A DNA stretch of 64,000 bases from Candidatus Eiseniibacteriota bacterium (lineage in GTDB: Bacteria; Eisenbacteria; RBG-16-71-46), in NCBI GenBank assembly GCA_963717935.1, contig CAVQXP010000004.1:608001-672000 (forward strand), read 5' to 3'. How positions within the stretch are numbered: position 1 is the first letter of the stretch; each line of letters opens with the position of its first letter. The position numbers are program-made. This document shows positions 45,001-48,000 of the stretch, in pieces.

Positions 45001-48000
45001 TCTTCGCGGTCGCGGAGGGGTCCCCGGCGGCGCACGCGGGGATCCTGGCGGGCGACGTGCTGGTGGCGATCGACGGCGAATCCGTCACGGACCTCGACGT
45101 CGTGGCGGTCGCGCGGAAGCTCGAGGGTGCGCCCGGAACCGCGCTCTTGCTGGGGCTGCGACGTGGTCCACGAGAGTGGACCTGTCGCGTGGTCCGCAAG
45201 CTGCTGCTCTAGCCTCGCGGGACCCCCTCGACATCCCGGAAACGGCGTCCCGATATTTCGTGAAACAGTCGTCTATTTGGAATCCTGCAGACTGGCAACA
45301 TGATGCCGCACATATGAATTGCCGATTTGTCCAAAATCACGACATTTCGTGAATAACCGACTTGAAGGGAAGTGACTGCGGGCTCTCCCGCGACCCCCTC
45401 GGAGGCGCCTCGCCCGCTCGCCGGAACGCTCGAAAGAGCACGTCCCGGCCCTGGCCGAACGTCGCTCTGCGGGCATCCGTGATGGGTCCCGTCGAGCTGC
45501 TCTTCGCTAGCTCGCCGCGGCGAGATCCTCGTCTGGCGCATGCAGGGCACGGAGGCGCTCGCACACCTTCTCGACCCGCATCGCGCTCACCGTCTCGACC
45601 GAATAGGGCTCGTCCCAGATCAGGTTCCCGCGCAGCCAGACTCTCAGTTCGGGGTGGGCCTGCAGGAGGGTGAGACCGGTTCGTCCCTTGAGCTGTCGGA
45701 CGGTGCCCGAGACACTCTGCGTGGGGCTCAGCCCGAGGACCAGATGGACGCGCTGCGGCGCGGCCGCGAACTCGACCAGAGTGAAGTCCAGCTCGTCACA
45801 GGTCTGCTGGATCAGGTCGCGGAGGGTTCTGACGTGGCGGTCCCTCAGCACCGGCCGGCGGCCCCGCGTACTCCAGGTGATCACGTAGTGGAGCTGGCTC
45901 CGGTAGACCGGCTCCCAGCGTCCACGCAATGCCTCATCGACCTCGGGGGCGAGATTGCGGTTCATGTTCGTGCCTCCTGTTTGCTGAACATCCGTGCAGT
46001 ACACGTACACACTTCTAGATGCCATCAACTGCCTGGGGGGTTCATCCGGTCGACCGCGGTCGCGACTCCCGGGCGGCCGGTGCCCCGGCCCCGGCCACGC
46101 GCCCTAGCCGCCCACGGTCCGCAGCACGCCGGTGACCACGCCCAGGATCCGGAAATCCTGGCCCTCGGTCACCTGGATGGGGTCGTATTTCTCGTTCGCC
46201 GGCACGAGCTCGATCCGGTCGGGCCGGGGCCGGTAGTACTTCACCGTGGCCTCCTCGCCGATCAGAGCCACCACGATCGCCCCGGGCTTTGCCTGGTCGC
46301 GCTGCCGGACGATGACGACGTCGCCCTCGAGGATGCCGGCGTCCACCATGCTGTCGCCCCGCACCCGCAGTGCGAACAAGTCGCTCGAGTCGCCAAACGC
46401 CTGTCCCACGTCCAGCCGGTCTTCGATGCACTCCTCGGCCAGGATGGGCTGGCCCGCCGCGACCCGGCCGATCAGCGGGACGCCGATGCCCCGCCCGGTC
46501 GAGGCCAGGCCGCAGCCCCGCGAGACCCCGCCACGGTGCTTCAGGTAGCCCGCCTTTTCGAGCATGGTCAGGTAGTAACGGACCCCGTTGGTCGATGAGA
46601 TGCCGAAGGCCTTCCCGATCTCGCGGATCGTGGGAGGCATGTCGTGCTCATGCTGGAAGCTCCGGATGTAGGACAGGATCTTTCGCGCTCGGTCGTTCAA
46701 CATGACTCGCGCCCCCGGTTGGCCTCGTCCACGATGGACGTCGACGGACGGCAGGTTAGTGCACAGGCGTGCAGCGTGTCAAGGGGCGATTTCGGGCCGT
46801 AACGGCGCGGGCTCCTGCTGGCCGGCGCCCCGTGCACGGCGGCTACGCCGCGTGACGCGGGGCGACAGCGACGCGAAGCGCAGGAGGTGCACCGGGCTCA
46901 GGACGTCCATGCGCTGACGCCGCCTGGTACTCCGTGGACAGTCGCGCCCGGCGGACGCTGTCACGCTCGGCGCGGCGGAGGCGATCGCCCCCGCGGGAAT
47001 CACGACTTGCGCGTTTCCGCCGTCCGCGTCACGTGTTGGTCCGCAGATTGCGATGGGTCGAGATCGAGGTCGCGAGACCTCTGCACGAGAGGCAAGGAGC
47101 GGGGGCCGGGTCCGTGGAGGTTGGCCGCAATCGGGGGCCGGTCGGCTGAAGCGATCCGCCCCGCCACCTTGTCGGTCGAGCAGGGCGATCAGGCCCGGCA
47201 CCACATGACCGTGGAGCCGGGCCCCGTCCTTTATAGGGTGCGCAGCGGTCTGCCACTTCCAGCGCTGGGTGAGCCCGGCAGACCCGTTGCGCGGCAGGGG
47301 GGCTCGCAGGACTTCCCGCGCGGGCCGTTGATGAACCCCGCTGCGCTTGGCGCTTCGCCGTGTGAATGGAGCGCGTCGTCGCTTCCTTGACTTCGCTCTG
47401 CGCCATCGCGAAGACTCCCCGCGCGCACCATCCGGTTCCGTGTCGTGTCCCGATCGCCTGGAGACCCCATCCATGAGGCGTGCCCGCCAGTTCTTCACCT
47501 GCCTGTCGCTCCTCATGCTGTCGGTCCCTTCCGGCGCGGGCCCCGCGCGATGCGCCGCACCGGCGGACACGGCGAGCGTCGAGGTCGAGGGAGTGACCAT
47601 CTTCGGCACGCGCCCGCTCACGACGCGAGGCGGCAGCAGCGCCATTCGCGCCGTGCTCGATTCGCTGCCGATCCCGGCGGCCGGCAGCCTGGAGCAGGTG
47701 CTGCGCAGTCTGCCCGCGCTCCACGTGCGCACGAACAGCCGCGGCGAGGCCGAGCTCTCGGTGCGGGGCTCCGAATCGCGACAGGTGGCGGTGCTCCTCG
47801 ACGGTGTGCCGCTCACGCTGAGCTGGGATGGCCGCACCGACGTGTCGGTGATCCCGGTGGGCGCGCTCCAGCAGGTGACGCTGGTGCGAGGGCTCTCCAC
47901 GCTGCTCTCCGGACCGAACGTGCTCGGTGGCGCGATCGAGTTCGAGAGCGGCGCGGCCGGCGGACGGCCCGACCCGTCTTCGTTCCAGGTCCGCTCCGGC

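Follow-up and report, generated by a model that had tools for sequence, protein, structure and literature searches.

The gene directly downstream of lexA in the 64,000-nt stretch of Candidatus Eiseniibacteriota DNA analyzed here (the window) is, as far as comparative sequence data can tell, a domesticated gene under predicted LexA control, whose product has the TnpA fold and is unable to transpose by the known chemistry. We lean, on balance, toward reading this product (the Y1 protein) as an exapted, LexA-controlled protein with the IS200/IS605 TnpA fold, which has ceased to be a transposase and most likely binds structured single-stranded DNA (ssDNA) without cutting it. Whereas TnpA of IS200/IS605 elements is mobile and uses a catalytic tyrosine together with a glutamine ligand, the Y1 gene is present in a single copy beside lexA, appears to be vertically inherited and carries its own LexA-type operator, and its protein lacks both residues, with the HUH motif eroding. 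The features of the locus are collected in Table 1.

Table 1. Features of the lexA-Y1 locus (positions in the window).
Feature	Position	Strand	Remarks
-35 hexamer TTGACA of the lexA promoter	46777..46782	minus	3 nt upstream of the lexA operator
lexA operator TGCAC-GCCT-GTGCA	46760..46773	minus	TGCACGCCTGTGCA; perfect palindrome between the -35 hexamer TTGACA and the -10-like CTAACC
lexA, 199 aa	46104..46703	minus	winged-helix DNA-binding domain and S24 self-cleaving domain
lexA-Y1 spacer, about 138 nt	45966..46103	minus	contains an imperfect, GC-rich inverted repeat without T-run (46070-46101)
Y1 operator TGCAC-GGAT-GTTCA	45985..45998	minus	TGCACGGATGTTCA; imperfect palindrome, T for G in the right arm; ends 19 nt ahead of the Y1 ATG
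Y1 ribosome-binding site AGGAGG	45973..45978	minus	read in the sequence
Y1_Tnp-fold gene, 152 aa	45507..45965	minus	IS200/IS605 TnpA homologue; stop codon 45507-45509
Y1 HUH position, codons 72-74	45744..45752	minus	reads R-V-H in the window protein
Y1 codon Y121	45603..45605	minus	conserved W..xY..TVS strand; structural residue across the superfamily
Y1 codons R137-L141, helix alpha-D	45543..45557	minus	places of ISDra2 TnpA Y132 and Q136
Short imperfect inverted repeat, 9-nt arms	45490..45517	minus	spans the Y1 stop codon; without T-run

Fold, copy number and inheritance of the Y1 gene

The Y1 protein matches the Pfam family Y1_Tnp (PF01797; E 1.8e-19, 70.5 bits, cut-off 23) and passes the NCBIfam model for IS200/IS605 TnpA (NF033573; 76.4 bits, cut-off 55), and a search against PDB profiles finds ISDra2 TnpA (2xm3; E 9e-22). 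With the AF2 model of the protein (pLDDT 80), the best Foldseek match is again ISDra2 TnpA (E 4e-11, probability 1.0), and IS200-type transposases reach TM scores of 0.65-0.76. By sequence as well as by fold the protein is thus a homologue of TnpA, sharing with the enzymes of ISDra2, IS608 and IS200 the fold, the length class and the conserved strands, including the one with W..Y..TVS. Behind a linker modeled with low confidence the C-terminal tail, D/E-L-A-x-A-S, is conserved. The open reading frame is listed as 45507-46028, but translation probably begins at the ATG at 45965, preceded by AGGAGG, for a product of 152 aa; a GGAGG precedes the chosen start in 30/30 loci (SD score 4-5 of 5). The upstream gene encodes a regular LexA, with Peptidase_S24 (E 2e-32) and LexA_DNA_bind (E 1.9e-14) domains, a score of 183.4 bits against TIGR00498 (cut-off 110.95) and, read by eye, the Ala-Gly site, the GDSM serine and the TVKYY lysine.

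The marks of a mobile element, namely hairpin ends, variable copy number and an accompanying tnpB, are missing. Y1_Tnp has one match in the 3.0-Mb genome and TnpB (PF07282) none; at the locus no 16-mer exceeds three copies, and the three flanks, searched by blastn, match the genome only at chance level. The inverted-repeat scan of the locus gave short GC-rich hairpins and no IS ends, and the repeat spanning the Y1 stop codon has no further copies elsewhere in the genome. An Rfam scan of the whole window found nothing at gathering score, and no PADLOC defense model matches the Y1 protein, LexA or the DUF6504-like protein. The position beside lexA is fixed in all Y1 loci examined: lexA immediately precedes the Y1 gene, in the same orientation, in 30/30 loci of one set and 80/80 of another, two sets that overlap in species and together give 110/110 locus rows. 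Three apparent lexA-Y1 paralogues in one genome (G119; L051, L089 and L109) were rejected as alternative contigs of a single locus, because they have the same neighbors, a ribA-like, an EamA and a PDZ protease gene.

The Y1 gene was matched in 37/41 relatives, including 23/24 of family f1, 10/10 of f3 and 3/3 of f2, and 0/3 of f4-f6. Among 206 genomes of the phylum it is found in 80/88 of f1, 10/10 of f3 and 3/3 of f2, i.e., in 93/101 other genomes of these families, while the other families of the phylum give weak matches only, in 6/104 genomes. In places the gene seems dispensable: it was not found in 8/88 f1 genomes (completeness 65-97%), is frameshifted and without operator in another (G023, locus L028), and is truncated in f2. 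Pairwise distances of the Y1 protein and LexA are correlated (r 0.87 over 378 pairs), a value reached in 0/2000 permutations, and the median dN/dS over 66 pairs is 0.21 for the Y1 gene vs 0.30 for lexA. The gene order is lexA-Y1-DUF6504-dinB in f2, and lexA-DUF6504-dinB without Y1 in f4. These data support a domesticated gene that is vertically inherited with lexA under purifying selection, so that the survey's finding of a single-copy, lexA-linked gene without TnpB or IS ends, domesticated, confined essentially to these families and passed down together with its neighbor, is borne out.

A relic of an ancient IS200 insertion, without function and merely hitch-hiking beside lexA, could explain why the catalytic residues are gone (see below), why the f2 proteins are truncated and why one f1 genome carries a frameshift. 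It is nevertheless highly improbable, since a frame of ~152 aa is open in 29/30 relatives' loci, dN/dS lies below that of lexA, 18 residues are invariant across Y1 families with only ~40% mutual identity, and conservation in the spacer is limited to the gene's own operator and ribosome-binding site.

Residues of the former catalytic center

According to the available part of the text of Quentin et al. (2018; PMC6006769), HuH and Y are common to every class of the superfamily, and class 1 has Y---Q. Catalytic residues were counted in 81 aligned Y1 family proteins, with the nucleophile column set by HMM alignment and the ISDra2 residue marked by its Y132F entry (2xo6). The position of the ISDra2 nucleophile, Y132, is occupied by Arg in 78/81 members (R137 in the window protein), and helix alpha-D is free of Tyr in all 81; beyond the TVS strand a Tyr is present at all in 6/81 only, within a non-conserved insert of the C-terminal tail. 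The metal-ligand Gln (ISDra2 Q136) is kept in 1/81, with L141 in its place in the window protein, which accordingly has no Y---Q. Outside the family the column reads Tyr in 12/12 homologues, as opposed to Arg in 7/7 family members, and K-x-Y-[IL]-x-x-Q is retained by all 12 nearest outside homologues aligned.

The HUH motif is intact in 74/81 proteins (HVH 66, HIH 4, HAH 2, HLH 2) and degenerate in 7/81 (RVH 3, QIR 3, QVR 1), with part of f3 reading QIR, QVR or QVK. At least three lineages have lost it independently of one another, with no decay of the gene seen there; the window genome is among them, and its RVH, noted in the survey's finding next to the HVH of most relatives and confirmed by the alignment, means that the first metal-binding His is gone. 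The f2 proteins end before Y121 and have neither the final strand nor the catalytic helix. Beside the sheet, E124 is kept in 75/81 proteins and is also present in ordinary TnpAs.

The tyrosine that had been taken to be the invariant catalytic one, within DExY[SA]VETVS, is Y121. It is invariant in 81/81 family members, but it aligns with Y117 of ISDra2 TnpA (WNPSY motif) and is equally invariant in 19/19 aligned superfamily proteins, including 12 ordinary TnpAs, in which it is not the nucleophile; it is a structural residue, and the true nucleophile column is that of R137. The accompanying proposal of an active, damage-induced HUH/Y1 enzyme, which would cut and rejoin ssDNA through a phosphotyrosine with Y121 as the nucleophile, hence becomes very unlikely, even though Y121 never varies, most members keep HUH and active TnpAs share the fold. 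With an Arg at the true nucleophile position, the Gln ligand lost and HUH eroding to RVH in the window protein and to QIR, QVR or QVK in part of f3, and with f2 proteins that stop ahead of Y121 and of the catalytic helix, the Y1 protein is not expected to be a cut-and-join enzyme.

The retention of HUH in 74/81 members would nonetheless be unexpected were metal binding unimportant, which leaves room for some catalysis. A metal-dependent hydrolytic nuclease, in which His-x-His holds the metal and water replaces the tyrosine, so that structured ssDNA is nicked and not joined, would account for this retention, for the conservation of E124 and for the nearly invariant Arg at the former nucleophile site. 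We regard it as quite unlikely, since Gln, which was the third ligand, is gone, HUH has disappeared repeatedly without the gene decaying, and E124 is not peculiar to the family. To our knowledge, no HUH enzyme works hydrolytically without its Tyr.

The predicted SOS box and regulon

The pattern TGCAC-N4-GTKCA occurs at three sites in the window (five strand matches) vs 0.23 expected, and 0/100 shuffles reach five. The 150 nt ahead of lexA contain a box in 30/30 and 80/80 loci, and the layout TTGAC-N3/4-box recurs across the lexA upstream regions of 30 relatives. The Y1 operator follows the strict pattern in 73/80 loci and a one-letter variant in 5 more, with none in 2; it ends 17-31 nt ahead of the start in 72/79 loci having a box, and scores 23.3 bits with the position weight matrix (PWM) in the window. 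The same box is located within the core promoter of dinB (17/19 loci) and of the DUF6504-like gene (29/30), and upstream of mraZ (27/30). With the lexA-operator PWM, only five sites in the genome exceed 14 bits, and these are the ones at lexA, Y1, dinB, the DUF6504-like gene and upstream of mraZ. Since the palindrome recurs at these genes, we infer from its footprint-like conservation that TGCAC-N4-GTKCA is the predicted LexA box, i.e., the SOS box, of the order. The operators described earlier before lexA and the Y1 gene are thus recovered, and the Y1 gene, carrying a predicted site of the same type as lexA itself, would belong to the SOS regulon as proposed.

The claim that both the box and the regulon are new holds in part. 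The LexA box of Fibrobacter succinogenes is reportedly a palindrome of the 5-N4-5 type built from the same half-site, almost identical to the one seen here, and Eisenbacteria and Fibrobacter belong to one superphylum, so that the Eisenbacterial operator is probably of a known type. The content of the regulon differs, and we know of no earlier description of one composed of lexA, a Tyr-less TnpA, a DUF6504-like gene, dinB and a site upstream of mraZ. Searches of the literature outside subscription journals returned nothing linking Eisenbacteria with LexA, nothing on SOS-linked IS200/IS605 genes of this kind and nothing on DUF6504; for RAYTs and LexA, the matches listed were unrelated.

Most relatives outside the genus of the window have a terminator-like hairpin with T-run in the lexA-Y1 spacer (66/80 loci in all), while a consensus scan of 45300-46900 found no terminator in the spacer of the window; a promoter scan of the same region detected none for the Y1 gene. 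Without a promoter found for Y1 and without a terminator behind lexA in the genus, read-through from lexA is possible. In all sequencing runs that match the locus the shares are small (at most 0.33); X20 gave short conserved lexA pieces only, and long pieces came from metatranscriptome X6 alone. There, contigs of a ~90% identical relative cover the Y1 gene at a word depth of 100-190 vs 23 for lexA, a weak hint of expression from contigs that cannot show transcript, strand or level.

The unbroken pairing with lexA in all locus rows and the co-divergence of the two proteins could also reflect a partner of the SOS switch, in that the Y1 protein would bind LexA or the RecA filament and tune repression or cleavage. 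The conserved C-terminal tail resembles a docking peptide, and LexA-type repressors are known to work with small co-factors: in the text available of PMC4551915 and PMC11332147, gp7 of phage GIL01 acts on LexA and DdrR on UmuDAb. Adjacency, however, is explained equally well by the history of the insertion, and the TnpA fold offers no hint of repressor binding, which makes such a partner unlikely. Prediction of a LexA-Y1 complex from alignments of 28 rows each, with controls not run, gave a score of 0.00 and is uninformative either way.

Relation to known systems and possible role

In eukaryotes the domestication of transposases is well documented; in bacteria it is rare, with RAYTs, which have kept their chemistry, as the main case. 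Like the Y1 gene, RAYTs (TnpA-REP) are host-retained, single-copy and vertically inherited members of the same superfamily, as laid out in the accessible parts of Bertels et al. (2017; PMC5581495) and of PMC6006769. These shared traits would also suit a RAYT that maintains REP/REPIN repeats. Such an identity is extremely improbable, since the Y1 protein reaches only 33.2 bits with the RAYT model NF047646 (cut-off 80) while it passes the IS200 model, and the RAYT structure 4er8 (Foldseek E 1.4e-4) falls far behind the IS200-type TnpAs. Moreover, RAYTs keep the HUH and Tyr center, as far as the accessible text of PMC5581495 describes it, and are flanked by REP repeats, neither of which holds for the Y1 protein and its gene. 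The terms "LexA" and "SOS" occur 0 times in PMC5581495 and PMC6006769, as available.

The sole dispersed hairpin family found (20-26 copies) is specific to one genus (5/7 genomes), with single matches in two other genera and 0 in a further 24. Its spread does not follow the Y1 gene, and it was rejected as a conserved ligand of the protein.

SOS control of transposase genes as such has precedents. A transposase-family gene whose promoter contains a LexA site is described for ISCR in the accessible text of PMC13393415, and the Tn5 transposase gene is reportedly LexA-repressed (work cited in the part of PMC2806898 available). These elements are active, mobile and found in many hosts, and SOS control serves their transposition, whereas the Y1 gene is immobile and disabled and belongs, by its predicted operator, to a core host regulon. 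ISDra2 is likewise tied to DNA damage, yet through its substrate: irradiation triggers transposition via ssDNA, while expression of the transposase is not induced (PMC2806898, as available).

An origin can be envisaged in which an IS200-type tnpA inserted between lexA and DUF6504-dinB in the ancestor of the order. It would have lost its ends and afterwards its chemistry, with Tyr replaced by Arg, the Gln ligand gone and HUH eroding in several lineages, and would thereafter have been passed down vertically with lexA as a single copy under purifying selection. Comparative evidence suggests that LexA occupies TGCAC-N4-GTKCA at lexA, Y1, dinB, the DUF6504-like gene and upstream of mraZ, such that self-cleavage of LexA upon DNA damage would switch on a small regulon including the Y1 gene. 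The core of the TnpA β-sheet and helices is kept, and in relatives this core grips ssDNA hairpins at replication forks. Lacking the nucleophile, the Y1 protein most likely acts without cutting, and it probably binds ssDNA non-catalytically. It could then be a damage-induced binder of structured ssDNA at gaps or stalled forks, and may cooperate with Pol IV (DinB), whose gene still lies near Y1 in f2.

A more far-reaching version, which we put forward tentatively and consider rather doubtful as a whole, is that the Tyr-less TnpA serves as a damage-induced, non-cutting clamp on ssDNA at hairpins or forks, acting with DinB and the small all-beta DUF6504-like protein in a new lesion-tolerance module. 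This module would have been born of an IS200-type insertion into an ancestral lexA-DUF6504-dinB operon, the DNA-recognition surface of the transposase being recruited by the host.

The Y1 family is small and confined to one order, so that its general impact hinges on what the protein does. The automatic label "IS200/IS605 family transposase" can evidently conceal host genes, and the locus provides a first outline of what is predicted to be a very small SOS regulon in an uncultured phylum, comprising lexA, Y1, dinB and the DUF6504-like gene, along with a site ahead of mraZ, a regulator of division. Within it, the Y1 gene is probably an undescribed, non-cutting part of the Eisenbacterial DNA-damage response and a well-defined candidate for a novel SOS function. 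If this is true, a fold would have been kept in bacteria over more than 100 species-level lineages while its catalytic center was discarded, and would have been wired to the DNA-damage response.

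The lexA–Y1 locus and its operators

The Y1 gene encodes a homologue of the IS200/IS605-type transposase TnpA and lies downstream of lexA, with 137 nt between lexA and the Y1 ORF as started at the ATG at 45965, which is preceded 7 nt upstream by AGGAGG. LexA scores 183 bits with the NCBIfam lexA model (cut-off 111), and residues 23-135 of the Y1 protein match Pfam Y1_Tnp (E 1.8e-19, 70.5 bits, cut-off 23); the protein passes the NCBIfam IS200 model (76 bits, cut-off 55) and stays below the cut-off of 80 with the RAYT model (33 bits). The pairing with lexA described in the survey's finding holds throughout, since lexA is found immediately 5' of Y1 on the same strand in 30/30 loci from relatives and in all 80 loci of a scan with one genome per species (gaps 84-228 nt; nearly all titled Candidatus Eisenbacteria), although the two sets share species and their rows are kin, so that the trials are not independent. 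The palindrome TGCAC-N4-GT[GT]CA, said to precede both genes, is present upstream of lexA in all 30 and all 80 loci; before Y1, 73 of the 80 loci carry the strict pattern, five a one-letter variant (GTACA or GATCA) and two neither. With a slightly looser pattern the Y1 box is seen in 79/80 loci, and 72 of these 79 boxes end at a distance of 17-31 nt upstream of the start codon. Its right arm mostly reads GTTCA instead of GTGCA (T in 95% of the 73 sites), and one might guess that this constant mismatch reflects overlap with an unrecognised promoter element.

Coordinates of the features (window positions unless a contig of the window's genome, G000, is named; L-numbers are fetched loci)
Feature	Position	Strand	Details
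lexA	46104-46703	minus	199 aa; Pfam Peptidase_S24 and LexA_DNA_bind
lexA operator TGCACGCCTGTGCA	46760-46773		three bases behind TTGACA
Y1 gene	45507-46028 (ORF list); likely start ATG at 45965	minus	152 aa from likely start
Y1 operator TGCACGGATGTTCA	45985-45998		19 nt before Y1 start
Third perfect TGCAC-N4-GTGCA palindrome	25671-25684		within a 353-aa ORF (minus strand)
dinB box	G000:C4:1762874 (L002:1375-1388)		between -35 and -10 of a TTGGCA-box-TATCTT promoter
DUF6504-like gene	G000:C4:311905-312159 (L003:1406-1660)		84 aa; Pfam E 0.0023, below cut-off; box within promoter
mraZ box	G000:C2:302360-302373 (L004:1860-1873)		perfect; 157 nt upstream of mraZ
Dispersed hairpin repeat	~40060-40160		26 places in G000
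GC-rich tandem repeat arrays	39880-40100 and 40290-40500		intergenic, either side of the hairpin

A hairpin followed by a T-run lies between lexA and the Y1 box in 66/80 loci, an arrangement that favours separate regulation of Y1; in the window's genus the lexA–Y1 spacer lacks it. This terminator-like hairpin has the same stem base, GGGAGC...GCTCCC, under a variable top in 45 of the 80 loci (L035-L114), and could be a relic of an ancestral IS left-end hairpin or merely a conserved terminator. In the metatranscriptome X6, contigs of a ~90% identical relative cover the Y1 gene at a word depth of 100-190 (lexA 23) and extend through the spacer into lexA at its 3' end (45783-46180). These contigs, which come without strand, ends or level and from a kind of library that can contain DNA, are only a hint of Y1 expression.

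The window also holds a dispersed hairpin repeat, without an Rfam match there, in which an apex of ~21 nt is conserved, while the long stems vary between copies yet remain complementary. It is present in 6-26 copies in 5/7 genomes of the genus, as single matches in two other genera, and in none of the remaining relatives.

The palindrome as a putative LexA box

Three TGCAC-N4-GTKCA sites (five strand matches) occur in the window, as opposed to 0.23 expected, and five matches were reached in 0/100 shuffles. The third site, within the 353-aa ORF, is probably a chance occurrence, because it scores below 14 bits with a matrix built from the 80 lexA operators. Genome-wide, the five TGCAC-N4-GTGCA sites compare with ~2.7 expected by chance from base composition, which alone proves little; the evidence comes from their locations, namely the lexA promoter, dinB-DUF72, the promoter of the DUF6504-like gene, the region upstream of mraZ and one intragenic position. 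Only five sites in the genome exceed 14 bits with the matrix: dinB (28.2), the DUF6504-like gene (27.1), lexA (26.0), the mraZ upstream region (23.7) and Y1 (23.3). LexA boxes are classically recognised by their control of lexA itself and of a translesion polymerase, and because boxes are located at lexA and at the translesion polymerase gene dinB, the palindrome is accepted, on this positional evidence, as the putative LexA (SOS) box of these bacteria. The published LexA box of Fibrobacter succinogenes is reportedly almost identical.

The boxed dinB encodes a Y-family polymerase (IMS, E 2.4e-43) and is followed by a DUF72 gene; its box recurs with the layout TTGnnn-box-TAnnnT in 17/19 loci of relatives, and at E<=1e-30 a dinB query finds matches in the main family f1 only (18/24 other f1 genomes). 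The DUF6504-like gene is present in 40/41 relatives, with a box upstream in 29/30 loci, and the sister families f2 and f3 and a further family, f4, have a paralogue located between lexA/Y1 and dinB. Its AlphaFold model is all-beta (pLDDT 94) and yielded no Foldseek match in the PDB (best E 0.26), and a literature search found no publication naming DUF6504. A perfect box also lies 150-250 nt before mraZ, which heads the division and cell-wall cluster, in 27/30 loci of relatives (L177-L206). In the window's genome it is located ~45 nt 5' of a strong TTGACA-17-TATGTT promoter, which itself precedes GAAGTGGTGCA repeats, and it may belong to a second, LexA-controlled promoter that gives an SOS brake on division via MraZ.

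The active site of the Y1 protein

The invariant Tyr that the survey's finding took to be catalytic is not the nucleophile. When a 28-member family profile is aligned to ISDra2 TnpA (2xm3; E 9e-22), this residue, Y121 (W-D-E-x-Y-S-V-E-T-V-S), falls opposite Y117 of the WNPSY strand, whereas R137 aligns with Y132, the nucleophile, identified as such by the Y132F mutant entry 2xo6, whose sequence departs precisely at this residue. In a MAFFT alignment that joins seven family members to their 12 closest full-length homologues from outside the family, Y121 is indeed invariant (19/19), and the nucleophile region reads K-x-Y-[IL]-x-x-Q in 12/12 outside homologues, with Arg in 7/7 family members. Of 81 family proteins, 78 have Arg at the nucleophile position and one each Gly, Val and Lys, while the Gln position is occupied by Leu, Thr, Ile and others, and by Gln once. 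None of the 81 has a Tyr in helix alpha-D, and a Tyr after the TVS strand occurs in only six, in a non-conserved tail insert. As noted earlier, the HUH motif reads RVH in the window; among the 81 proteins it is H-x-H in 74, RVH in 3 with the window included, QIR in 3 and QVR in 1. That the HVH-type members retain hydrolytic activity is a possible but unlikely reading.

The AlphaFold model of the Y1 protein (pLDDT 80, pTM 0.71) has TnpA topology with a helix at 131-142, and Foldseek places the ISDra2, IS608 and IS200 TnpAs at the top (E 4e-11 to 1e-8), with the RAYT 4er8 far behind (1.4e-4). The Y1-like proteins of f2 (L134-L136; genomes G029, G025 and G027) carry a long N-terminal extension and have RLD or HVN in place of the lost HUH. 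All three stop just past L-W-D/L-W-I, one of them five residues further, and lack the last strand and helix alpha-D. Because two genera have this end in common, the proteins look like a form that was shortened and kept, less like products of random decay. By contrast with the Arg of the Y1 family, the catalytic centre is kept in RAYTs and IS200 TnpAs: the accessible text of Quentin et al. (2018; PMC6006769) gives HuH and Y as common to all superfamily classes and Y---Q in class 1, without the words LexA and SOS, and that of Bertels et al. (2017; PMC5581495) a catalytic centre common to RAYTs and IS200, without mention of LexA or SOS.

Host gene, history and proposed action

In the 3.0-Mb genome (five contigs, 93% complete) there is one Y1_Tnp match and no TnpB-type match, in agreement with the survey's finding; the three flanks of the locus have no repeats elsewhere in the genome beyond chance, and its inverted repeats are short GC-rich hairpins only. 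The Y1 gene is a host gene rather than an insertion sequence. As a query, its protein finds matches in 37/41 relatives (f1 23/24; f3 10/10, ~40% identity; f2 3/3, 27-35%; further families f4-f6 0/3). A profile search over 206 genomes of the phylum reproduces the distribution first reported, with f1 80/88, f3 10/10, f2 3/3 and only weak matches (E 1e-6 to 1e-14) in 6/104 genomes of other families. Three copies in one genome were rejected as alternative contigs of a single locus. The unpublished f3 genome G026 contributes loci L034, L164 and L194 and one row each to the alignments A1, A2 and A4 and the analyses built on these; it is counted once each in f3 10/10, 30/30, 29/30 and 27/30, and no conclusion rests on it. 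Among 1.84 billion protein cluster representatives, 5578 relatives were found at E<=1e-3 and only seven at E<=1e-30; judged by these sequences, the Y1 family is a small clade, sharply set apart. The missing matches in 8/88 f1 genomes (completeness 65-97%), the frameshifted, operator-less gene of G023 (L028) and the f2 truncation speak against an essential role.

Median dN/dS (Nei-Gojobori, 66 pairs of 12 f1 loci) is 0.21 for Y1 and 0.30 for lexA. That Y1 diverges like LexA is borne out by their pairwise protein distances (r 0.87 over 378 pairs, 0.75 within f1; 0/2000 permutations as high), with within-f1 means of 0.36 and 0.35, respectively. In f2 the genes run lexA-Y1-DUF6504 paralogue-dinB and in f4, which has no Y1, lexA-DUF6504 paralogue-dinB; the paralogue is still 3' of Y1 in parts of f3. 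In the simplest history, the common ancestor of f1-f3 would have acquired one IS200-type gene by a single insertion into an SOS operon, after which IS ends and chemistry would have been lost and the operon later scattered in f1.

Comparison between genomes shows a fixed, selected, Tyr-less protein of predicted TnpA fold behind a LexA-type operator. From the earlier proposal of a damage-induced cutting and joining enzyme, induction is retained, in that DNA damage would de-repress the Y1 gene through this operator, and cutting is given up with the nucleophile. A role as a partner at LexA or RecA is possible but unlikely. The Y1 protein would more probably act by binding rather than cutting, as suggested by relatives whose fold grips single-stranded hairpins and fork-like DNA (accessible parts of PMC2806898 and PMC6006769) and by the response of ISDra2 to damage-generated single strands (PMC2806898).
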